A stretch of 64,000 nucleotides of DNA from Escherichia coli (GCF_044324785.1 NZ_CP172127.1); one strand, 5' to 3'. Positions 4,750 through 29,129 are shown, counted from the stretch's first letter. Notes: generated by a model not told the origin, from the sequence alone. Made by a program: numbers and translations.

Positions 4750-6885
4750 TTATTCGATAAGGCTTTCTGAAGGGGTGATCAGTTGTGGGTTCAGGCAGCT
4801 TTCATAATAGGCCTGAATCTTCATCATGCGAGTACGATGACGCTGGTAACGCCGCCAGGCCTGTACGCCATTATAAATGGCGCTACCCAGCATCGTCAGT
4901 AGCAGCAGCGTGGTGCTGAGATAGCGCCACAGGCCGGAACGATCCGGGATCGGATGAAGGCCAATATGCTGCGTACCATTGGCGTCAGTGAAGATTTTTG
5001 TGACGATACCCTCGGCGTTAAACGGCGTATGCATCAGCATTTGTGCCAGTTTCTGGAAAGCGTTCCACTGTTCTTGCGGCGGGTAGTCGTAAAGTGATGC
5101 CGAAGGCCAGGGCTGATCAACAAAATCGCTGCCTTCGTCGCTGACAATCAGGAATCCACCGGGGGCGGGACTGTTTAGTGATTGTGCCGCTCGCGCCGTT
5201 TCATGCGTGATAAACGGCGCGGTGGAGGTTGCCACCAGGTTATCCAGTGATTCCGCACTCACCGGGCGTAATAACACATTCACGCCATCGAGTTTCCCAG
5301 CGTTGGCGCGTTTTACCAGCGCGTCCCAGTCTTTACTGTTGCCGAGATTGACCAGCGCATTTTTCAGTCGCACACAGTCATCTTTGGCAGAACATAGATC
5401 CGCTGTCTTCAGTACTATGTCGCCAAAATCATCAAGCAATACCATGCCGGATTTTTGAATTGCTGAACGTAATGAGGCGCTGACGCGAGATTCATCTTCC
5501 GGTTTAGGGTGCAGCTGGCGATTAACTGCTTCGGTCAATGCCGTCGCTTTGTTGACCAGTTCAGATTCTGGTAATGGCAATGAGCGGGCGTCATTCCAGA
5601 TGATCTGCGAGCAGTCAAACGGTAAAAAAGGTGAGTTGGTTTTCGCGCTCCAGGTACCGGAAGTGCGAATATTACACATTCCCGTACCGCTAATACGCAA
5701 TGTATCGCCAACCCGCACGCCAGCGTCAGCCAGTTGTTTCACGCTGGTGGCTTCAATGGTCTGCGCGCCTTTCATCCACGAGAGGGTGAATTTCAGCGGC
5801 ATATCCAGCGGGATCCAGAATAACAGCATAAACAGCACCAGTAGCGAGCCCGCAGCGATAATCGTACTGCGCAGCCAGTGCTGTAACGGAAAGTTTTTTA
5901 CTTCATCATGGAGCGAAAGATATCGCCCCTGACGCACTACGTGGCGGTCGAGATAGATATCGATATCGGTTTGTTGACCGAGATCCTGAGCAATGTATGG
6001 CTGCCAGTGTGCGGGGTAGACCAGGTCGATAATACCGAGTGAAATATTGTTGATCTGTTCCTGATCGTTTTCGCCAAACAATCCCCAACGACGGGGTGTA
6101 CCGCGCAGACAATGAATTTCCCGCAGGGAGGATTTTGCCGGGGGCGCGAATAGCCCCCACAGACCTGCGCCCAGCAGCAGTAACGCGCCGCCTGCCAGCC
6201 ACGGAACAAATACATCCGGGGTAATCAGGCAGAAAAAGAACATCAGGAATGAGGCGACAATCAGCAACGCTTCACGCAGCCCGCGCGGACGACTTAGCGC
6301 ATACTCTTCGTGCGTTTCTTTGCGAATATTGAGTAGCTCGATTTGCTCACTCTCTTCCCCGCGAATCGACGCCTGTGTTGACGGAACAGGTTGCAAGGCA
6401 TAGCCGCGAGTTTCCTGCATGTACTCCTGCAGCGTATGACCGTTGAGTGAAATAACCAGCGGCAGCGAATCGGTATGAATCAGTTCAACGGTATTCTCAT
6501 CGTTGATGTACTGTTCCCAGAAGGGGGGCAGGTGGACTTCTACCGAATCGAGGTAGTAACGCCATTTATTCGGATCGTCGGTAGAGATGCCGTAACGCGT
6601 GATAGCGTGTGTCAGCATCATGACGTTGTTGCTTTCGGCATTCAGCGCCAGAGAGATCGGTGCCGCGCTGGCTCCCGTTGGGCCAGGCACCTGTAATACC
6701 TGCGTCAGGCTCTCAAGATAATTTTCAACGGCGCTACGTTCTTCAGGTGTGAGTTTACGCGTTTGCGCATCCGCGAAGGCGTTGGTCCAGGGCAGCTGAC
6801 GCCGTCTGGATCGCACTTTTATCAGCCATCCCGCAAGTAGTGAGCAGGCCAGCAAAGCAGCTAAAAAAATCACAATGGTGCTCAT
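4750..6885 (-). CDS. igaA: IgaA/YrfF inner-membrane regulator of the Rcs phosphorelay
   Basis: ORF track 711 aa with N-terminal and internal transmembrane segments; conserved position. Confidence 0.9.
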   Translation of the reverse strand: MSTIVIFLAALLACSLLAGWLIKVRSRRRQLPWTNAFADAQTRKLTPEERSAVENYLESLTQVLQVPGPTGASAAPISLALNAESNNVMMLTHAITRYGISTDDPNKWRYYLDSVEVHLPPFWEQYINDENTVELIHTDSLPLVISLNGHTLQEYMQETRGYALQPVPSTQASIRGEESEQIELLNIRKETHEEYALSRPRGLREALLIVASFLMFFFCLITPDVFVPWLAGGALLLLGAGLWGLFAPPAKSSLREIHCLRGTPRRWGLFGENDQEQINNISLGIIDLVYPAHWQPYIAQDLGQQTDIDIYLDRHVVRQGRYLSLHDEVKNFPLQHWLRSTIIAAGSLLVLFMLLFWIPLDMPLKFTLSWMKGAQTIEATSVKQLADAGVRVGDTLRISGTGMCNIRTSGTWSAKTNSPFLPFDCSQIIWNDARSLPLPESELVNKATALTEAVNRQLHPKPEDESRVSASLRSAIQKSGMVLLDDFGDIVLKTADLCSAKDDCVRLKNALVNLGNSKDWDALVKRANAGKLDGVNVLLRPVSAESLDNLVATSTAPFITHETARAAQSLNSPAPGGFLIVSDEGSDFVDQPWPSASLYDYPPQEQWNAFQKLAQMLMHTPFNAEGIVTKIFTDANGTQHIGLHPIPDRSGLWRYLSTTLLLLTMLGSAIYNGVQAWRRYQRHRTRMMKIQAYYESCLNPQLITPSESLIE

Positions 6886-12345: not shown

Positions 12346-12739
12346 ACGCTGGTTGTTGGCAGGTATTGCATTGTGCCTTTTAACCGGTATGCGTGACCCT
12401 TTTAAACCGCCGGAAGATCTATGCCGGATTAGCGAACTTAGCCAGTGGCGCTATCAGGGGATGGTAGGGCGAGGCGAGCGCATCATCGGTGTAATAAAAG
12501 ACGGGCAAAAAAAATGGCGACGGGTGCAGCAAAACGATGTGCTGGAAAACGGCTGGACGATCTTACAGCTGACGCCAGACGCACTAACGCTGGGAACCGG
12601 GACAAACTGCGAACCGCCACACTGGTTGTGGCAACGGCAAGGAGATACAAATGAAGCAATGGATAGCAGCACTACTGTTGATGCTGATACCCGGCGTACA
12701 GGCGGCAAAGCCGCAAAAAGTGACACTGATGGTGGATGA
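12335..12739 (+). CDS. hofP: PilP-like lipoprotein
   Basis: ORF track 147 aa trimmed to MRVKRWLLAGIALCLLTG (lipobox-like LTGM, then C). Confidence 0.8.
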   Translation: MRVKRWLLAGIALCLLTGMRDPFKPPEDLCRISELSQWRYQGMVGRGERIIGVIKDGQKKWRRVQQNDVLENGWTILQLTPDALTLGTGTNCEPPHWLWQRQGDTNEAMDSSTTVDADTRRTGGKAAKSDTDGG

Positions 12740-18972: not shown

Positions 18973-19723
18973 GTTTGAAGATATTCGCGGCGTCGCTTTT
19001 GATCTCGATGGTACGCTGGTAGACAGTGCTCCTGGCTTGGCTACCGCAGTAGATATGGCGCTGTATGCGCTGGAGTTGCCCGTCGCAGGTGAAGAACGCG
19101 TTATAACCTGGATTGGTAACGGCGCAGATGTTCTGATGGAGCGCGCATTGACCTGGGCGCGTCAGGAACGTGCGACTCTGCGTAAAACAATGGGTAAACC
19201 GCCCGTTGATGACGACATTCCGGCAGAAGAACAAGTACGTATTCTGCGTAAACTGTTCGATCGCTACTATGGCGAGGTTGCCGAAGAGGGGACGTTTTTG
19301 TTCCCGCACGTTGCCGATACGCTGGGCGCATTGCAGGCTAAAGGCCTGCCGTTGGGCCTGGTCACCAACAAACCGACGCCGTTCGTCGCGCCGCTGCTGG
19401 AAGCCTTAGATATCGCTAAATACTTCAGCGTGGTGATTGGTGGTGATGATGTGCAAAACAAAAAACCGCATCCGGACCCGCTGTTACTGGTGGCTGAGCG
19501 GATGGGAATTGCTCCACAACAGATGCTGTTTGTTGGCGACTCACGCAATGATATTCAGGCAGCAAAAGCGGCAGGTTGCCCATCAGTTGGCTTAACCTAC
19601 GGATATAACTACGGCGAGGCTATCGATCTCAGCCAGCCTGATGTAATTTATCAGTCTATAAATGACCTTCTGCCCGCATTAGGGCTTCCGCATAGCGAAA
19701 ATCAGGAATCGAAAAATGACTAA
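18965..19723 (+). CDS. gph: phosphoglycolate phosphatase (HAD)
   Basis: ORF track 252 aa; HAD motif [10 protein letters not shown]; overlaps rpe stop. Confidence 0.94.
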
Positions 19724-20720
19724 GCCCATCGTTTTTAGTGGCGCACAGCCCTCAGGTGAATTGACCATTGGTAACTACATGGGTGCGCTGCGTCAGTGGG
19801 TAAACATGCAGGATGACTACCATTGCATTTACTGTATCGTTGACCAACACGCGATCACCGTGCGCCAGGATGCACAGAAGCTGCGTAAAGCGACGCTGGA
19901 TACGCTGGCCTTGTATCTGGCTTGTGGTATCGATCCTGAGAAAAGCACCATTTTTGTTCAGTCCCACGTGCCGGAACATGCGCAGTTAGGCTGGGCACTG
20001 AACTGCTATACCTACTTCGGCGAACTGAGCCGCATGACGCAGTTTAAAGATAAATCTGCGCGTTATGCCGAGAACATCAATGCTGGTCTGTTTGACTATC
20101 CGGTGCTGATGGCAGCGGACATCCTGCTGTATCAAACTAATCTGGTACCGGTGGGTGAAGACCAGAAACAGCACCTGGAACTGAGCCGCGATATCGCCCA
20201 GCGTTTCAACGCGCTGTATGGCGAGATCTTTAAAGTGCCGGAGCCGTTTATTCCGAAATCTGGCGCGCGCGTAATGTCGCTGCTGGAGCCGACCAAAAAG
20301 ATGTCCAAGTCTGACGATAACCGCAATAACGTTATCGGCCTGCTGGAAGATCCGAAATCGGTAGTGAAGAAAATCAAACGTGCGGTCACTGACTCCGACG
20401 AGCCGCCGGTAGTTCGCTACGATGTGCAGAACAAAGCGGGCGTTTCCAACCTGCTGGATATCCTTTCTGCGGTAACGGGCCAGAGCATCCCGGAACTGGA
20501 AAAACAGTTCGAAGGCAAGATGTATGGTCATCTGAAAGGTGAAGTGGCTGATGCCGTTTCCGGTATGCTGACTGAATTGCAGGAACGCTATCACCGTTTC
20601 CGCAACGATGAAGCCTTCCTGCAACAGGTGATGAAAGATGGCGCGGAAAAAGCCAGCGCGCACGCTTCCCGTACGCTAAAAGCGGTGTACGAAGCGATTG
20701 GTTTTGTGGCGAAGCCGTAA
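19716..20720 (+). CDS. trpS: tryptophanyl-tRNA synthetase
   Basis: ORF track 334 aa; class I motifs (TIGN, KMSKS). Confidence 0.96.
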
Positions 20721-20735
20721 TTTAACATTAATGCC

Positions 20736-20762
20736 AAAAACCGGGGAAACCCGGTTTTTTTT
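20736..20762 (+). terminator. rho-independent terminator of the aroK...trpS transcription unit
   Basis: aaaaa ccggg gaaa cccgg tttttttt, 16 nt after the trpS stop. Confidence 0.88.
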
Positions 20763-20880
20763 ATCCTCATTTGCAATAATCCGAAAAAATGTGAAGCGCC
20801 TCGCCGTTTCCACATCTCGCAGTTGCCACTTATCTTCATTTTTATGAAGATATAAATATTCACTTTATTGAAAATTTACT

Positions 20881-21786
20881 ATGCGTCGAACGTTTATCAA
20901 AAAAGAAGGCGTCGTCATCACGACACTGGCCCGTTATTTGTTGGGTGAAAAGTGCGGTAATCGACTGAAAACCATAGATGAGCTGGCAACTGAATGCCGT
21001 TCATCCGTTGGCCTGACGCAGGCCGCGTTGAAAACGCTGGAATCAAGCGGAGCGATACGGATTGAACGCCGTGGGCGCAATGGCAGTTATCTGGTGGAAA
21101 TGGATAACAAAGCATTGCTGAGTCATGTGGATATCAACAATGTGGTGTGCGCGATGCCCTTGCCCTATACCCGTTTGTACGAAGGCCTGGCGAGCGGATT
21201 GAAAGCTCAGTTTGATGGCATTCCTTTTTACTATGCGCATATGCGCGGCGCGGATATTCGCGTGGAGTGTTTACTTAACGGCGTGTATGACATGGCGGTT
21301 GTTTCCCGACTGGCGGCGGAAAGTTATCTCACGCAAAAAGGCTTATGCCTCGCGCTGGAGTTGGGGCCGCACACCTACGTTGGCGAGCACCAGTTGATTT
21401 GCCGTAAAGGCGAGTCCGCAAACGTGAAGCGTGTGGGGCTGGATAACCGTTCGGCGGATCAGAAAATCATGACCGATGTTTTTTTTGGCGATACGGATGT
21501 GGAACGAGTCGATCTCTCCTATCACGAGAGTTTACAACGCATTGTTAAAGGCGATGTTGATGCGGTTATCTGGAACGTGGTGGCGGAAAACGAACTGACC
21601 ATGCTGGGATTAGAAGCGACGCCGCTCACAGATGATCCGCGATTTTTACAGGCCACCGAAGCCGTGGTCCTGACGCGAGTCGATGATTACCCAATGCAAC
21701 AACTGCTGCGTGCAGTTGTTGATAAACATGCCCTGCTTGCCCATCAACAACGCGTGGTGAGTGGGGAACAGGAACCCAGTTATTAA
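20881..21786 (+). CDS. yhfZ: putative transcriptional regulator of the yhf cluster
   Basis: ORF track 301 aa; first gene of the co-directional yhfZ...yhfS block. Confidence 0.8.
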   Translation: MRRTFIKKEGVVITTLARYLLGEKCGNRLKTIDELATECRSSVGLTQAALKTLESSGAIRIERRGRNGSYLVEMDNKALLSHVDINNVVCAMPLPYTRLYEGLASGLKAQFDGIPFYYAHMRGADIRVECLLNGVYDMAVVSRLAAESYLTQKGLCLALELGPHTYVGEHQLICRKGESANVKRVGLDNRSADQKIMTDVFFGDTDVERVDLSYHESLQRIVKGDVDAVIWNVVAENELTMLGLEATPLTDDPRFLQATEAVVLTRVDDYPMQQLLRAVVDKHALLAHQQRVVSGEQEPSY

Positions 21787-21802
21787 ACGAAAGGCATCTG
21801 AT

Positions 21803-22165
21803 ATGGAAACCAGACTCAACCTGCTTTGCGATGCAGGCGTTATTGATAAGGACATCTGCAAAGGCATGATGCAGGTCGTCAAGGTACTGGAAACAGAGTG
21901 CCATCTGCCGGTGCGCAGTGAGCAAGGAACGATGGCAATGACACATATGGCGAGTGCACTGATGCGCAGTCGCCGTGGTGAAGAAATAGAGCCGCTGGAC
22001 GCCGAATTGCTGGCAGAACTGGCGCAATCCAGCCACTGGCAAGCCGTTGTGCAATTGCATCAGGTGTTGTTGAAGGAATTTACACTGGAAGTTAACCCGT
22101 GTGAAGAAGGCTATTTGCTGGCCAACCTTTATGGATTATGGATGGCTGCTAACGAAGAGGTTTGA
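21803..22165 (+). CDS. yhfY: small PRD-domain-like regulatory protein (family assignment from recollection)
   Basis: ORF track 134 aa trimmed to METRLNLLCD. Confidence 0.75.
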   Translation: METRLNLLCDAGVIDKDICKGMMQVVKVLETECHLPVRSEQGTMAMTHMASALMRSRRGEEIEPLDAELLAELAQSSHWQAVVQLHQVLLKEFTLEVNPCEEGYLLANLYGLWMAANEEV

Positions 22166-22195
22166 AGCTCCCGACAAATCCACGTCGCACAACCT

Positions 22196-22219
22196 AAATA
22201 TTCAAAAAAATGAATATTT
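22196..22219. promoter_or_regulatory. perfect 9-6-9 inverted repeat (candidate operator or RNA hairpin) in the yhfY-yhfX gap
   Basis: AAATATTCA aaaaaa TGAATATTT, 30 nt upstream of the yhfX ATG. Confidence 0.4.
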
Positions 22220-22248
22220 AATTCAAGGAACAGAAACGAGGCAACAAG

Positions 22249-23412
22249 ATGTTTGTAGAAGCATTGAAACGCCAGAACCCGGCGCTAATTTCCGCCGCAC
22301 TAAGCTTGTGGCAAAAGGGCAAGATCGCCCCGGACAGCTGGGTGATCGACGTGGATCAGATACTGGAAAACGGTAAGCGGCTGATTGAGACGGCGCGGCT
22401 TTACGGCATTGAACTGTATCTGATGACCAAGCAGTTTGGTCGTAATCCGTGGCTGGCGGAAAAACTGCTGCCATTAGGCTACAGCGGCATTGTGGCGGTG
22501 GATTACAAAGAGGCGCGAGTCATGCGCCGCGCCGGTTTGCCGGTGGCGCATCAGGGGCATCTGGTACAAATCCCTTGTCATCAGGTTGCTGACGCCGTTG
22601 CACAGGGCACCGACGTCATCACCGTGTTTACTCTCGACAAAGCGCGGGAAGTTTCTGCGGCAGCGGTGAAGGCCGGACGTGTGCAGTCTGTGCTGCTCAA
22701 AGTTTATAGCGACGATGATTTTCTTTATCCGGGGCAGGAGAGCGGTTTTGTACAGCATTCGCTGCACGAGGTGGTTGCTGAAATTAAGAAACTGCCGGGG
22801 TTGCATTTAGCTGGACTAACCCATTTCCCTTGCCTGCTTTGGGATGAGGCTGCCGGGAAAGTTTTGCCGACACCGAATCTTCACACGCTGATACAGGCAC
22901 GGGATCAACTGGCGAAATCTGGTATTGCGATTGAGCAACTGAACGCACCTTCTGCGACCAGCTGCACTTCGCTGCCATTGCTGGCGGAATACGGTGTGAC
23001 TCATGCCGAACCCGGTCATGCGCTGACGGGCACTATTCCGGCAAACCAGCAGGGCGATCAGCCTGAACGTATCGCGATGCTCTGGTTAAGTGAAATCTCC
23101 CATCATTTCCGTGGCGACAGCTACTGCTACGGCGGCGGTTACTACCGTCGTGGTCATGCGCAACATGCGCTGGTGTTTACGCCAGAAAATCAAAAGATTA
23201 CTGAAACCAATCTCAAAGCCGTGGATGACAGCAGTATCGACTACACCCTGCCGCTGGCAGGTGAGTTTCCGGTAAGCAGTGCAGTAGTGCTCTGTTTTCG
23301 CACGCAGATTTTTGTCACCCGTAGCGATGTGGTGTTGCTGTCCGGTATTCACCGTGGCGAACCAGAAATCGTCGGTCGTTATGACAGTCTTGGAAACTCT
23401 CTGGGGGCGTAA
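22249..23412 (+). CDS. yhfX: alanine-racemase-fold PLP-dependent protein, substrate unknown
   Basis: ORF track 387 aa. Confidence 0.82.
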
Positions 23413-24638
23413 TGGCGCGATTTGTGGTGTTAGTGATTGATAGCTTTGGCGTAGGGGCAATGAAAGATGTCACGTTGGTGCGTCCGCAGGATGCCGGGGC
23501 GAATACCTGTGGTCACATCCTGAGCCAGTTGCCGCATTTGCAGCTACCAGCGCTGGAGAAGCTGGGGCTAATCAACGCATTGGGTTATGCACCAGGTGAT
23601 ATGCAGCCGTCAGACTCCGCAACTTGGGGTGTGGCAGAGCTGCAACATGAAGGTGGCGATACCTTTATGGGGCATCAGGAAATTTTAGGCACGCGCCCGT
23701 TACCGCCGCTGCGGATGCCCTTTCGTGATGTGATTGACCGTGTTGAGCAGGCATTAGTTTCCGCTGGCTGGCTGGTTGAGCGTCGTGGCGATGATCTGCA
23801 ATTTCTGTGGGTCAATCAGGCGGTTGCGATTGGCGATAATCTCGAGGCGGATTTAGGCCAGGTCTATAACATCACCGCCAATCTCTCTGTGATCTCTTTT
23901 GACGACGCAATCAAAATTGGTCGTATTGTGCGTGAGCAGGTACAGGTCGGTCGGGTCATTACATTTGGTGGCCTGTTAACCGACAGTCAACGCATTCTCG
24001 ATGCCGCAGAAAGCAAAGAAGGGCGCTTTATTGGTATCAATGCGCCGCGTTCTGGCGCTTATGACAACGGCTTCCAGGTCGTGCATATGGGCTACGGTGT
24101 CGATGAGAAAGTGCAGGTGCCGCAAAAACTGTATGAAGCGGGCGTGCCAACCGTGCTGGTGGGTAAGGTGGCGGATATTGTCAGCAATCCTTATGGCGTG
24201 AGCTGGCAAAACCTGGTGGATAGCCAACGGATTATGGATATCACTCTCAACGAATTTAACACCCATCCGACGGCGTTTATTTGTACCAATATCCAGGAAA
24301 CCGACCTCGCTGGTCATGCAGAAGACGTCGCACGTTATGCCGAACGTTTGCAGGTCGTTGACCGTAACCTTGCCCGGCTTATTGAGGCGATGCAGCCAGA
24401 TGATTGCCTGGTCGTGATGGCGGATCACGGTAACGATCCGACCATTGGTCACAGCCACCATACCCGCGAAGTGGTGCCAGTGCTGGTTTATCAGCAAGGG
24501 ATGGTCGCTACGCAGCTCGGTGTGCGCACCACGCTTTCTGATGTGGGGGCTACCGTGTGTGAATTTTTCCGTGCGCCACCGCCACAAAATGGTCGCTCTT
24601 TTCTTTCCTCCCTCCGGTTTGCAGGAGACACCCTATGA
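23412..24638 (+). CDS. yhfW: phosphopentomutase-like metalloenzyme, putative mutase
   Basis: ORF track 408 aa; N-terminus [17 protein letters not shown] resembles the DeoB-type metal-binding start. Confidence 0.82.
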
Positions 24639-25513
24639 GTATTGATCCGACGGGTTACACCCTCGCCCATGAGCATCTGCATATTGATCTCTCCGGCTTT
24701 AAAAACAACGTGGACTGCCGCCTTGATCAGTATGCGTTCATTTGCCAGGAGATGAACGACCTGATGGCCCAGGGCGTGCGTAATGTGATTGAGATGACCA
24801 ACCGTTACATGGGGCGAAATGCGCAATTTATGCTCGATGTGATGCACGAAACTGGCATCAACGTGGTGGCCTGTACCGGTTATTACCAGGATGCGTTTTT
24901 CCCGCAACATGTGGCGACCCGCAGCGTACAGGAACTGGCGCAGGAGATGGTCGATGAAATTGATCAGGGTATCGATGGCACGGAACTGAAAGCCGGGATC
25001 ATCGCGGAGATCGGCTCCAGCGAAGGGAAGATTACGCCGCTGGAAGAGAAGGTGTTTATTGCCGCCGCGCTGGCACATAACCAGACCGGACGCCCGATCT
25101 CCACGCATACGTCGTTCAGCACGATGGGGCTGGAACAACTGGCTCTGTTGCAAGCCCACGGAGTTAATCTTTCGCGCGTCACCGTTGGTCACTGCGATCT
25201 GAAAGACAACCTCGACAACATTTTGAAGATGATCGATCTCGGCGCGTATGTGCAGTTCGACACCATCGGCAAGAACAGTTACTACCCGGACGAAAGGCGC
25301 ATTGCGATGCTCCACGCGCTACGTGACCGTGGTTTGCTGAACCGCGTCATGCTGTCGATGGATATTACGCGCCGCTCCCATTTAAAAGCCAACGGTGGTT
25401 ATGGCTATGACTATTTATTGACCACCTTTATTCCGCAATTGCGCCAGTCAGGATTCAGTCAGGCCGATGTGGATGTGATGTTACGTGAAACTCCCTCTCA
25501 ATTTTTCCAATAA
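24635..25513 (+). CDS. php: phosphotriesterase-homology protein (amidohydrolase superfamily)
   Basis: ORF track 292 aa; N-terminal HxH metal motif ([14 protein letters not shown]). Confidence 0.9.
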
Positions 25514-25523
25514 GGACAGACTC

Positions 25524-25877
25524 ATGAAAAAGATTGGTGTTGCAGGCTTACAGCGTGAGCAGATTAAAAAAACCATTGAAGCGACGGCTCCTGGCTGTTT
25601 TGAAGTTTTCATTCACAACGACATGGAAGCGGCAATGAAAGTCAAATCCGGGCAACTGGATTACTACATCGGCGCGTGTAATACCGGTGCGGGCGCGGCA
25701 TTGTCGATTGCCATCGCGGTGATTGGCTATAACAAAAGTTGCACCATTGCCAAACCAGGCATTAAAGCGAAAGACGAACATATCGCCAAAATGATCGCCG
25801 AAGGGAAAGTGGCGTTTGGGCTTTCCGTTGAGCACGTCGAACACGCGATTCCGATGCTGATTAACCATCTGAAATAA
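25524..25877 (+). CDS. yhfU: small conserved protein of unknown function
   Basis: ORF track 130 aa trimmed to MKKIGVAGLQ (117 aa). Confidence 0.78.
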   Translation: MKKIGVAGLQREQIKKTIEATAPGCFEVFIHNDMEAAMKVKSGQLDYYIGACNTGAGAALSIAIAVIGYNKSCTIAKPGIKAKDEHIAKMIAEGKVAFGLSVEHVEHAIPMLINHLK

Positions 25878-25888
25878 AAGGCACGACT

Positions 25889-27193
25889 ATGGATCTGTAT
25901 ATTCAGATTATCGTGGTGGCGTGCCTGACGGGTATGACATCGCTTCTGGCGCATCGCTCGGCGGCCGTTTTTCATGACGGTATCCGCCCGATCCTGCCGC
26001 AACTGATTGAAGGCTATATGAACCGTCGCGAGGCGGGGAGTATCGCTTTTGGTCTGAGCATTGGTTTTGTGGCTTCGGTGGGGATCTCTTTTACCCTGAA
26101 AACCGGACTGCTCAACGCATGGTTACTCTTTCTTCCTACCGATATCCTCGGCGTACTGGCGATAAACAGCCTGATGGCGTTTGGTCTTGGCGCTATCTGG
26201 GGCGTGTTGATCCTTACTTGCCTGTTACCGGTAAACCAGCTGCTGACCGCGCTACCGGTGGATGTATTAGGTAGCCTGGGGGAATTAAGCTCGCCGGTGG
26301 TTTCAGCTTTTGCACTGTTCCCGTTGGTGGCGATTTTCTACCAGTTTGGCTGGAAGCAAAGTCTGATCGCCGCCGTGGTGGTACTGATGACCCGTGTGGT
26401 GGTAGTGCGCTATTTCCCGCATCTCAATCCGGAATCCATCGAAATCTTTATTGGCATGGTGATGCTGCTGGGGATCGCGATAACTCACGACCTGCGTCAT
26501 CGTGATGAAAATGATATTGATGCCAGCGGGCTTTCGGTGTTTGAAGAACGCACGTCGCGGATTATCAAAAACTTACCGTATATCGCTATTGTCGGGGCGC
26601 TGATTGCCGCCGTTGCCAGCATGAAGATTTTTGCTGGCAGTGAAGTGTCGATCTTCACACTGGAGAAAGCATATTCCGCAGGCGTAACGCCGGAACAATC
26701 ACAAACGCTGATTAACCAGGCAGCTCTGGCGGAATTTATGCGCGGGCTGGGTTTTGTACCGTTGATTGCCACCACCGCGTTAGCCACTGGTGTGTATGCA
26801 GTTGCGGGCTTTACCTTTGTTTATGCGGTGGGCTATCTCTCGCCGAATCCGATGGTTGCAGCGGTATTAGGCGCAGTGGTTATTTCGGCGGAAGTCCTGC
26901 TGCTTCGTTCGATCGGCAAATGGCTGGGGCGCTATCCGTCGGTGCGTAATGCGTCAGATAACATCCGTAACGCCATGAATATGCTGATGGAAGTGGCGTT
27001 GCTGGTCGGTTCGATTTTCGCAGCAATTAAAATGGCGGGTTATACCGGATTTTCTATCGCAGTTGCCATTTACTTCCTCAACGAATCCCTGGGCCGTCCG
27101 GTACAGAAAATGGCGGCACCGGTCGTGGCAGTAATGATCACCGGTATTCTGCTGAATGTTCTTTACTGGTTTGGCCTGTTCGTTCCGGCTTAA
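25889..27193 (+). CDS. yhfT: polytopic inner-membrane protein (putative transporter)
   Basis: ORF track 434 aa, hydrophobic throughout. Confidence 0.85.
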   Translation: MDLYIQIIVVACLTGMTSLLAHRSAAVFHDGIRPILPQLIEGYMNRREAGSIAFGLSIGFVASVGISFTLKTGLLNAWLLFLPTDILGVLAINSLMAFGLGAIWGVLILTCLLPVNQLLTALPVDVLGSLGELSSPVVSAFALFPLVAIFYQFGWKQSLIAAVVVLMTRVVVVRYFPHLNPESIEIFIGMVMLLGIAITHDLRHRDENDIDASGLSVFEERTSRIIKNLPYIAIVGALIAAVASMKIFAGSEVSIFTLEKAYSAGVTPEQSQTLINQAALAEFMRGLGFVPLIATTALATGVYAVAGFTFVYAVGYLSPNPMVAAVLGAVVISAEVLLLRSIGKWLGRYPSVRNASDNIRNAMNMLMEVALLVGSIFAAIKMAGYTGFSIAVAIYFLNESLGRPVQKMAAPVVAVMITGILLNVLYWFGLFVPA

Positions 27194-27204
27194 GGAAGGC
27201 ACCT

Positions 27205-28290
27205 ATGAAGACGTATCCTTTGCAAAGCCTGACGCTTATTGAGGCGCAGCAAAAGCAGTTTGCGCTGGTGGACACGATTTGCCGCCATTTTCCCGGCAGC
27301 GAGTTTCTTACCCGCGGGGATTTGGGCTTAACGCCGGGGCTGAATCAACCGCGCATTACCCAGCGAGTGGAACAGGTGCTGGCTGATGCATTTCACGCAC
27401 AGGCTGCGGCGCTGGTACAGGGCGCGGGTACTGGCGCGATCCGTGCGGCGTTGGCGGCTTTGCTCATACCGGGGCAGCGTCTTCTGGTGCATGACGCGCC
27501 TGTTTACCCGACGACTCAGGTCATTATTGAGCAGATGGGGCTGACGCTTATTACTGCTAATTTCAATGACCTGTCGGCACTTAAGCAGGTCGTCGAAGAG
27601 CAACAACCGGATGCGGCTCTGGTGCAGCATACGCGCCAGCAGCCGCAGGACGGGTACATTCTGGCAGATGTGCTGGCAACGTTGCGCTCGGCTGGCGTTC
27701 CTGCATTAACCGATGACAACTATGCGGTGATGAAGGTAGCGCGAATTGGCTGCGAATGCGGGGCAAATGTCTCGACTTTTTCCTGCTTCAAGCTGTTTGG
27801 GCCGGAGGGTGTTGGCGCGGTGGTAGGCGATGCCGATGTTATTAGTCGGATTCGCGCCACGCTCTACTCCGGCGGCAGCCAGATTCAGGGCGCTCAGGCG
27901 TTGGAAGTCTTGCGTGGGCTGGTGTTTGCGCCAGTGATGCACGCGGTGCAGGCGGGGGTATCTGAACGGTTGCTGGCCTTGCTCAACGGTGGTGCAGTTC
28001 CGGAAGTGAAAAGCGCCGTCATTGCCAATGCACAGTCGAAGGTGTTGATTGTCGAGTTTCATCAGCCGATTGCCGCCAGAGTGCTGGAAGAGGCGCAAAA
28101 GCGCGGTGCCTTGCCTTACCCGGTTGGTGCAGAGTCGAAATATGAAGTTCCGCCACTTTTTTATCGACTTTCCGGAACGTTTCGCCAGGCGAATCCGCAA
28201 CTCGAACATTACGCGATTCGTATTAACCCAAATCGCAGCGGTGAAGAGACGGTGCTGCGGATTTTGCGTGAGAGTATTGCGAGTATTTAA
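27205..28290 (+). CDS. yhfS: conserved protein of unknown function (possibly PLP-dependent; uncertain)
   Basis: ORF track 361 aa; last gene of the yhf block. Confidence 0.8.
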   Translation: MKTYPLQSLTLIEAQQKQFALVDTICRHFPGSEFLTRGDLGLTPGLNQPRITQRVEQVLADAFHAQAAALVQGAGTGAIRAALAALLIPGQRLLVHDAPVYPTTQVIIEQMGLTLITANFNDLSALKQVVEEQQPDAALVQHTRQQPQDGYILADVLATLRSAGVPALTDDNYAVMKVARIGCECGANVSTFSCFKLFGPEGVGAVVGDADVISRIRATLYSGGSQIQGAQALEVLRGLVFAPVMHAVQAGVSERLLALLNGGAVPEVKSAVIANAQSKVLIVEFHQPIAARVLEEAQKRGALPYPVGAESKYEVPPLFYRLSGTFRQANPQLEHYAIRINPNRSGEETVLRILRESIASI

Positions 28291-28326
28291 TGCTGGATAG
28301 CCCCGTTCGGCAATCAAGCTAAATTC

Positions 28327-28395
28327 AGCGCCGGACGGTCCCCGCAACGCGCCAGCATCGCCGGATGCGATGCTGGCGCATCTTATCCGGCCTAC
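28327..28395. repeat. REP/BIME element between convergent yhfS and frlR
   Basis: cgccggatgcgatgctggcgcatcttatccggcctac matches the canonical REP palindrome; partial second unit upstream. Confidence 0.75.
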
Positions 28396-28397
28396 GG

Positions 28398-29129
28398 TTA
28401 ATGTCTTTTATTATCAATCGTTAAGGTGATGCGGTTGGCGCGGCAGAAGAGTTCGGAGACGTGCACCGGTTTGTTATTCTGATCAAAGGCGATTTTGCTG
28501 ATGCGAAACAGCGGTTCGCCCAGTTCGCATTTCAGCCATTTTGCCTGCGGGCGGGTGGCGGCAAAAATATCGATAGTCTTTTTATCGCTGACCACTCGCG
28601 TGTCAAAACGCTCCTGAAATAACTGATAGGTGGAGCTTCCTTCGACGTAAATCTCATCAAAGTCAGGATAACGCGACAGCGGGATCCAGGAACTATCAAT
28701 AAACAGCGGCTCTTTATCGAGATACATCACCCGGCAAAGATGGAACACTTCGCTGTTACCGGGGATGTTCAGCTTTTCGCAAAACGGCGCGGCGCTGACC
28801 CGTTCCTGTTCGATCACTTTCTCTTTCGTCGCCTTGCCTTGTGAGACGCCAAAATCGGTAAAACCACTGACAGTAAGCAGGGCGTTTTCAACTTTCTGGC
28901 TTTGTACAAAGGTGCCTTTGCCCTGCCAGCGGATCAGTACGCCGTCTGCCACTAAGTCGCTGATGGCTTTGCGAATGGTAATGCGGCTGACGTTATATTG
29001 CGTACAAAGCTCGTTTTCGGTAGGGATCTGTTGCCCGGCCTGGTAAACCCCCTGCGCGATATCATCCAGCAACCGCTGGCGGACGGTAGCGTAGAGGAGT
29101 TGATGAGAGTAGCGGTCCGTAGCTGACAT
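28398..29129 (-). CDS. frlR: GntR-family transcriptional regulator of the fructoselysine operon
   Basis: ORF track 265 aa trimmed to MSATDRYSHQLLYATV (243 aa); N-terminal HTH. Confidence 0.88.
   Translation of the reverse strand: MSATDRYSHQLLYATVRQRLLDDIAQGVYQAGQQIPTENELCTQYNVSRITIRKAISDLVADGVLIRWQGKGTFVQSQKVENALLTVSGFTDFGVSQGKATKEKVIEQERVSAAPFCEKLNIPGNSEVFHLCRVMYLDKEPLFIDSSWIPLSRYPDFDEIYVEGSSTYQLFQERFDTRVVSDKKTIDIFAATRPQAKWLKCELGEPLFRISKIAFDQNNKPVHVSELFCRANRITLTIDNKRH

Follow-up and report, generated by a model that had tools for sequence, protein, structure and literature searches.

The yhfZYXW-php-yhfUTS cluster is an uncharacterised part of the E. coli genome. It is studied here in a 64-kb window, the whole stretch of E. 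coli DNA that was analysed, and positions are counted from the first nucleotide of that window. The cluster opens with yhfZ (20881-21786, + strand), the gene of the putative cognate regulator, a protein that carries the domains HTH_41 and YhfZ_C and belongs to the equivalog family NF041241. It is followed by yhfY (21761-22165, + strand), which encodes a small PRD-like protein of 120-134 aa; K-12 annotates the 120-aa form, starting 42 nt later. The first structural gene is yhfX (22249-23412, + strand). It heads the run yhfX-yhfW-php-yhfU-yhfT-yhfS, in which the genes are tightly packed or overlapping and extend to 28290, and one bioinformatic table in the literature lists yhfX-yhfS as an operon. 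The names yhfZ, yhfY and yhfX had already been assigned in a first-pass annotation of this DNA, and they agree with the RefSeq annotation of matching E. coli genomes and with Pfam and NCBIfam. The 3' end of yhfZ contains a perfect 10-bp inverted repeat, CAACAACTGC-tgcgt-GCAGTTGTTG (21697-21722, codons QQLLRAVV). It lies about 80 nt before the K-12 start of yhfY and may be either a hairpin of the mRNA or a coincidence of the coding sequence.

Between the yhfY stop (22165) and the yhfX ATG (22249) there is a gap of 83 bp, which holds a palindrome, here called site C. The first-pass annotation had described it as a perfect 9-6-9 inverted repeat at 22196-22219, immediately upstream of yhfX. The repeat is present as described, with the left arm AAATATTCA (22196-22204), the spacer aaaaaa (22205-22210) and the right arm TGAATATTT (22211-22219), and its position in the gap agrees as well. 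It even extends further: T22195 and A22220 pair too, so that site C is a perfect 10-6-10 palindrome, tAAATATTCA-aaaaaa-TGAATATTTa (22195-22220, listed without a strand). It scores 31.9 bits with a 24-nt weight matrix that was built from orthologous sites. The cores of the palindrome are TTCA (22201-22204) and TGAA (22211-22214), arranged around a dyad centre at 22207.5, and TTCA precedes the yhfX ATG by 48 nt. The 29 nt between the 3' end of site C and the ATG include the ribosome-binding site GAGG (22238-22241, + strand), which is 7 nt before the ATG and is conserved across Enterobacteriaceae as GAGGCAA. The right arm can also be read as ATG AAT ATT TAA (22210-22221), a mini-ORF of three codons without a ribosome-binding site; its length and stop codon vary across genera, and it was rejected as a functional element.

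The frequency of such palindromes was estimated with a first-order Markov simulation of the window, in which perfect 9-bp inverted repeats with loops of 3-10 nt were counted. About 2.3 register-hits are expected per 64 kb, or about 0.003 per 83 bp, which bears out the earlier statement that the palindrome is unlikely to occur by chance in so short a gap. The real window contains 33 register-hits, corresponding to about 16 distinct perfect 9-bp repeats. The majority of these are G+C-rich and terminator-like, and just two are A+T-rich, namely site C and a relative at 20831.

This relative belongs to a pair of sites that were overlooked in the first reading and on which the interpretation turns. 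The two, named A and B, are arranged in tandem a short way upstream of yhfZ, with their dyad centres 24 bp apart; like site C, they are listed without a strand. Site A (20830-20853, centre 20841.5, 32.2 bits) consists of TTATCTTCA-ttttta-TGAAGATAT, in full TTATCTTCAtttttaTGAAGATAT, and is found directly upstream of site B. Within it is a perfect 9-4-9 inverted repeat, TATCTTCAT-tttt-ATGAAGATA (20831-20852). Site B (20854-20877, centre 20865.5, 28.5 bits) consists of AAATATTCA-ctttat-TGAAAATTT, in full AAATATTCActttatTGAAAATTT; it has 1 mismatch to site C and ends 4 nt before the yhfZ ATG.

The motif common to the three sites is wwATnTTCA-w6-TGAAnATww, that is, a core TTCA-N6-TGAA with A+T-rich flanks and an A+T-only spacer. 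In each site, the TTCA and TGAA cores are 6 bp apart and their centres 10 bp apart, or one helical turn. Dimeric helix-turn-helix proteins use dyads with this half-site spacing. The pattern of site C, with up to 3 mismatches allowed, has 2 occurrences in the window, compared with 0.04 expected. Likewise, the only matches of at least 12 bits in the 64-kb window are sites A, B, and C, all of which score above 28 bits.

Sites A and B fall within the promoter region of yhfZ. In an alignment of this region from 21 genera, the invariant elements are a TGTGA-N6-TC box (its GTGA and TC), TTG at 20823-20825, and site A. The box reads TGTGA-agcgcc-TCGCC (20790-20805, + strand, centre 20797.5). The CRP consensus is TGTGA-N6-TCACA, and from this likeness the box is presumed to be a CRP site; it suggests catabolite control of the yhf operon. 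The invariant TTG is part of a -35-like hexamer, TTGCCA (20823-20828, + strand), 2 nt before site A. Together with a 17-bp spacer and GAAGAT (20846-20851, in the right arm of site A), it forms the candidate promoter P2, the top sigma-70 candidate in E. coli with 7.6 bits. The predicted P2 start is near 20858/9, which would place the CRP-like box at about -61.5, the standard class I CRP position, and site B at about +7. In a second candidate, P1, TTTCCA (20807-20812) is followed after 18 bp by TATCTT (20831-20836, on the left arm of site A); P1 ranks first in 14 of 25 species. Core elements of both candidate yhfZ promoters fall within site A, and site B covers the start region. The yhf genes have no start-site entry in the supplementary data of the Cappable-seq, Kim 2012, or SMRT-Cappable-seq studies, so that these promoter positions are predictions.

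The window does not come from K-12, and comparison with MG1655 (K-12) gives 95.7% identity across the operon from yhfZ to yhfS (4.3% differing), as against 98.3% in the flanking trpS and frlR-side DNA (window 19000-29000). Judging by these figures, the yhf operon is unusually divergent between E. coli lineages. The most variable product is YhfY, with 88-95% identity within Escherichia. The 83-bp gap is 100% identical to K-12; it is present in 5074 of 5426 complete E. coli genomes and has at least 99% identity in 3155. The spacer between trpS and yhfZ measures 160 bp in the window and 289 bp in K-12 (12346-12634 in the K-12 locus, L081), where an insertion of about 146 bp lies just after the trpS terminator hairpin (20736-20759; compared region 20720-20760). 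This insertion fits the BIME that has been reported upstream of yhfZ in K-12 (PMC2965389).

Conservation was followed in 80 yhfZ loci, one per species. They were fetched via an alignment of YhfZ homologues, so that every locus was chosen for having yhfZ. The genera include Escherichia, Citrobacter, Klebsiella, Pluralibacter, Trabulsiella, Buttiauxella, Cedecea, Lelliottia, and Atlantibacter, as well as Serratia, Photorhabdus, Xenorhabdus, Providencia, Vibrio, and Photobacterium. The gene order yhfZ-yhfY-yhfX is kept in nearly all 80 loci. With the cut-off set at 18 bits, 75 of the 80 loci have site C no more than 260 bp upstream of yhfX, 61 have site A at -46 from the yhfZ ATG, and 50 have site B at -22. 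The first-pass annotation had pointed to conservation of the palindrome across Enterobacteriaceae as a check of its importance; it is conserved there, and in other families too. In five Vibrionaceae loci, where the gene order is different, the 18-bit scan gave no site upstream of yhfX.

The 611 kb of locus DNA from the 80 genomes contain 204 matches of at least 18 bits at homologous positions and 8 elsewhere. Two of these eight are in regulatory regions of Pluralibacter gergoviae, whose gene order is rearranged to yhfY-yhfZ-yhfX. One site is upstream of yhfY and the other upstream of yhfX, where TTCA and the yhfX ATG are 47-48 nt apart; thus in this species the sites track regulatory regions and have no fixed neighbour gene. 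Five further matches lie in the php coding sequence of Vibrionaceae. The match AAATCCTCAATTTATTGAAAATTT (19-24 bits, about 4956-4979) occurs in all five of these loci (L076-L080), encodes GRNPQFIENLID and has CTCA replacing TTCA, and it was set aside as a probable coding coincidence. The same was done with the remaining match, which is inside a coding ORF of 526 aa in Xenorhabdus koppenhoeferi, presumably glpD, since its peptide looks like GlpD.

In the gap between yhfY and yhfX, the conserved blocks are site C and the ribosome-binding site only, and the rest is unalignable between genera. The gap measures at least 73 bp in every locus, and in most species site C lies 11-43 nt past the stop codon of yhfY. 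Depending on the locus, TTCA is 47 to 194 nt away from the yhfX ATG, which argues against a role in translation or masking of the ribosome-binding site. TTCA and TGAA are invariant among the 26-30 distinct variants of each site. Compared with the spacers of sites A and B, the A-tract of site C is far more strongly conserved, which the operator model does not explain by itself.

Some features of the locus are specific to particular lineages. For instance, most Xenorhabdus (L051-L074) have an extra site, ATATCTTCAAAATATTGATAATAT (17-24 bits), at about -149 from yhfZ and some 104 bp before site A, and those species are without site B; lineages therefore differ in how the operators are laid out at the yhfZ promoter. 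Photorhabdus and Xenorhabdus (L035-L043, L049-L075) are without yhfW, so that php comes directly after yhfX, and their yhfU and yhfT homologues share just 35-40% identity with the E. coli counterparts. The putative operators persist in a cluster whose gene content varies. In Citrobacter koseri NCTC10786, yhfZ and yhfW look frameshifted, with no damage to the three sites. A YhfZ of 228 aa without the helix-turn-helix is present in many Shigella sonnei entries (P0091, for example). The yhf system appears to be decaying in these lineages.

The only DNA-binding protein encoded in the locus is YhfZ, which has a winged helix-turn-helix. NCBIfam names it "GntR family transcriptional regulator YhfZ", and its Pfam domain is HTH_41, not GntR PF00392. 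The helix-turn-helix and wing (RLKTI..L....SVGL.Q.AL..LE ... GRNG) show the highest conservation in a protein whose overall identity between E. coli and Vibrio is 45-48%, which fits the unchanged motif. An AlphaFold model of YhfZ (mean pLDDT 78) has the winged helix-turn-helix followed by a periplasmic-binding-protein-like domain, and the solved part is the C-domain only (PDB 2OZZ). Leaving aside the match to itself, the model has its best full-length fold match in the LysR-type regulator OxyR, and SsuA/TauA-type binding proteins come next; these matches are low, with TM-scores of 0.36-0.42, and YhfZ gave no LysR sequence-family match.

A motif that is confined to one locus in the DNA examined, and that sits on the promoter of the regulator encoded there, is the signature of a local autoregulated factor. 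YhfZ is thus the most likely ligand of sites A, B, and C. The first-pass annotation had proposed that a dimeric regulator such as YhfZ could use the palindrome as its DNA operator. The operator part of that proposal is upheld by the three sites, their presence in 75-80 species, their locus specificity, and the conserved winged helix-turn-helix of YhfZ, while binding by YhfZ is deduced from comparison. Overall, there is good reason for confidence that site C is a protein-binding DNA operator, one of three, with YhfZ as its probable binder. The literature searched yielded no binding, footprint, ChIP, or expression data for YhfZ, and the full-text literature on yhfZ/yhfX/yhfY, yhfW/T/S/U, and Php yielded no study of the operon's regulation. 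A search for the motif notation gave no match, and no description of the TTCA-N6-TGAA motif or of YhfZ targets was found in this literature, the databases RegPrecise and RegulonDB apart; the element is apparently new.

Other explanations of site C have to be weighed against this one. Short palindromes are likelier in A+T-rich intergenic DNA, and with some 16 perfect 9-bp repeats in the window, site C might be a chance palindrome in an A+T-rich spacer, with no function. However, the expectation for 83 bp is low, sister copies sit at the yhfZ promoter, and the sequence is kept in 75 of 80 species despite diverging flanks. This conservation already refutes the chance reading, whose probability is negligible, and the palindrome is real and non-random. 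The first-pass annotation had also considered an RNA hairpin at the yhfY-yhfX mRNA junction that would be the target of a PRD antiterminator; such a hairpin might equally be a stability or processing element. The 10-bp stem of E. coli indeed folds at -7.4 kcal/mol, with none of 200 shuffles as good, it shows in the centroid fold of the wider region, and the upstream gene product is annotated as PRD-like. Nevertheless, comparison between species does not show a conserved hairpin. Paired cells make up 84.6% of the site C alignment compared with 84.9% in column shuffles, and the covariation score is 0.042 in both. Pair 6/21 is broken, uncompensated, in 17 of 26 distinct site C variants; it is also non-complementary in 26 of 28 variants of site B and 15 of 30 of site A, with no compensatory pattern. 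In Xenorhabdus stockiae the stem reaches just -1.1 kcal/mol, although the sequence is conserved there. No terminator-like site exists in 22166-22248 or just after, Rfam returned sub-threshold noise only and no match, and the same motif upstream of yhfZ sits on promoter DNA. As for YhfY, the PRD-like label holds as an annotation with a sub-threshold PRD match (E=0.0099, below the cut-off, as is TIGR03582), but no CAT or other nucleic-acid-binding domain was found in it that would make it an RNA-binding protein. The antiterminator reading fails on these grounds, and an RNA hairpin of any kind is very improbable. It is the sequence of the half-sites that is conserved, not their pairing, and the perfect palindrome of Escherichia and Citrobacter would simply be the most symmetric variant of a protein-binding dyad.

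Another explanation concerns transcription from within the gap. Symmetry alone does not account for how strongly the left arm and A-tract of site C are conserved, and site C contains the -10-like hexamers AATATT, AAAAAT, and GAnnAT; in Xenorhabdus, a conserved TTGATT is located exactly 17 bp upstream of AAAAAT. The conserved block could therefore be mainly a promoter element of yhfX (a -10-like AAAAAT, AATATT, or GAATAT), to which the dyad is incidental. Against this, two further copies of the dyad, with other spacers, are found upstream of yhfZ, and the invariant bases are TTCA and TGAA, with no TATAAT-like pattern. Moreover, a weight-matrix scan gave no consistent -35/-10 pair with site C across genera and a best E. 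coli candidate of just 4.7 bits, and a consensus promoter scan of the yhfY-yhfX gap gave nothing. A promoter element with an accidental dyad is thus quite improbable. It is less far-fetched, but still unlikely, that sites A, B, and C are operators of a regulator other than YhfZ, such as a global or unlinked factor shared by Enterobacterales and Vibrionaceae. The link between YhfZ and the motif is drawn from comparison, the 5-6-5 geometry is the same as in CRP-family sites, the motif does not look like known GntR or LysR boxes, and the DNA scanned for extra copies amounts to about 0.67 Mb. On the other hand, neither the 64-kb window nor the 611 kb from 80 genomes has any more good copies, the off-target matches fall in php or glpD coding sequence, and the sites move with the locus when the gene order changes. 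A separate CRP-like box is already there, and the bases of the sites differ from the CRP, FNR, ArgR, TyrR, and Cra consensuses.

Several known kinds of site were compared with site C and rejected as its identity. An intrinsic terminator, which has a G+C-rich stem with a T-run behind it, is contradicted by the single G-C pair in the ten-bp stem, and the terminator scan did not report site C. A CRP site has the same 5-6-5 geometry but different bases, and the box at 20790-20805 fits CRP instead. The GntR operator core is (t)nGT-n-ACn(a), and the core TTCA-N6-TGAA is without GT...AC. ArgR, TyrR, Cra, MetR, NsrR, and IHF sites, the LysR T-N11-A box, MerR-type spacer operators, and dif/Xer-like sites were likewise rejected on their consensuses.

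With site C taken as one of three YhfZ operators, a mechanism for the control of the operon can be proposed. YhfZ would be encoded by the first gene of the operon that it controls. When sites A and B are occupied, RNA polymerase would be blocked, switching off the presumably CRP-dependent yhfZ promoter in a form of autorepression. Site C is placed in the only sizeable gap of the operon, between yhfZ/yhfY and the six transport and enzyme genes from yhfX to yhfS, and may give the regulator separate control of these structural genes. An inducer, bound by the binding-protein-like C-domain of YhfZ and possibly with modulation by YhfY, would then free all three sites.

There are two ways in which site C might act. 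It could affect transcripts that come from the yhfZ promoter, either as a roadblock in the untranslated gap or as an anchor that forms a loop with sites A and B, about 1.35 kb distant. This has a little less than an even chance of being right, and it is favoured by the finding that no promoter is consistently associated with site C, while the yhfZ promoter is conserved at the same phylogenetic depth. Alternately, site C may occlude a weak internal yhfX promoter with its -10 inside the site. Because the gap is always at least 73 bp long, the arm and A-tract are so well conserved, -10-like hexamers are present, and Xenorhabdus has its TTGATT, such an occluded promoter is about as likely; on its own it is a serious candidate that nevertheless falls short of an even chance.

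A more elaborate version of the mechanism is rather doubtful. In this version, site C is a checkpoint within the operon, where bound YhfZ stops or loops out CRP-dependent transcription from the yhfZ promoter, and YhfY couples the gate to the phosphotransferase system. If this were true, YhfZ and the PRD-like YhfY, as the sensor pair, would still be made, and the six structural genes would remain silent until the substrate appears. It would also put a winged-helix regulator under the control of a stand-alone PRD protein, a pairing not known to have been described before.

Although a local regulator's operator is otherwise an ordinary kind of element, the cluster in which it is found gives it some significance. 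To our knowledge, Php (phosphotriesterase homology protein) has been without a known natural substrate for decades. An operator motif, a likely regulator, and a candidate CRP-dependent promoter make the yhf system experimentally tractable. For instance, reporter fusions or YhfZ-operator assays could be used to screen for the inducer, which may lead to the substrate of the pathway. The layout of three sites also provides a concrete model for separate control of the regulatory and structural halves of an operon.

Several well-studied systems resemble the yhf locus in part. The RAT hairpins of BglG/LicT-type PRD antiterminators are, like site C, short inverted repeats near a PRD-like gene, situated in the leader or a junction of the mRNA. 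A RAT hairpin overlaps an intrinsic terminator and keeps it from forming, and its cognate protein combines an RNA-binding CAT domain with PRDs. Site C differs from them in having no overlapping terminator, CAT domain, covariation, or conserved hairpin.

GntR-family regulators of the FadR/HutC type share with YhfZ an N-terminal winged helix-turn-helix followed by an effector domain, are presumably dimeric as YhfZ would be, and have inverted-repeat operators on their own promoters, as in yhf. Unlike them, YhfZ has an HTH_41 domain, and its effector domain has the type II periplasmic-binding-protein fold that is found in LysR-type regulators. The LysR-type regulators themselves have the same domain order as YhfZ, a winged helix-turn-helix and then a binding-protein-like effector domain, and the adjacent position of sites A and B on the promoter is reminiscent of their recognition and activation sites. 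However, the yhf motif is T-N10-A or T-N12-A rather than T-N11-A, and sites A and B are equivalent full dyads, 24 bp apart.

The lac (O1/O2/O3, LacI), gal (OE/OI, GalR), deo, and nag systems, catabolic operons in which a locus-encoded repressor with several operators is combined with activation by CRP, are similar in their layout. In these, as in yhf, there are palindromic operators on the promoter and one further downstream, a CRP-like box upstream of the promoter, and a regulator with a sensor domain. The yhf locus is different in that YhfZ comes from another regulator family, and in that the system is known here from sequence alone. The regulator gene is also the first gene of the operon that it appears to control, and some 1.35 kb separate the distal site from the others, so that it falls in an internal intergenic gap dividing the regulatory from the structural genes. 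In its relation to the promoter-proximal pair, site C recalls the auxiliary downstream operators lac O2 or gal OI.
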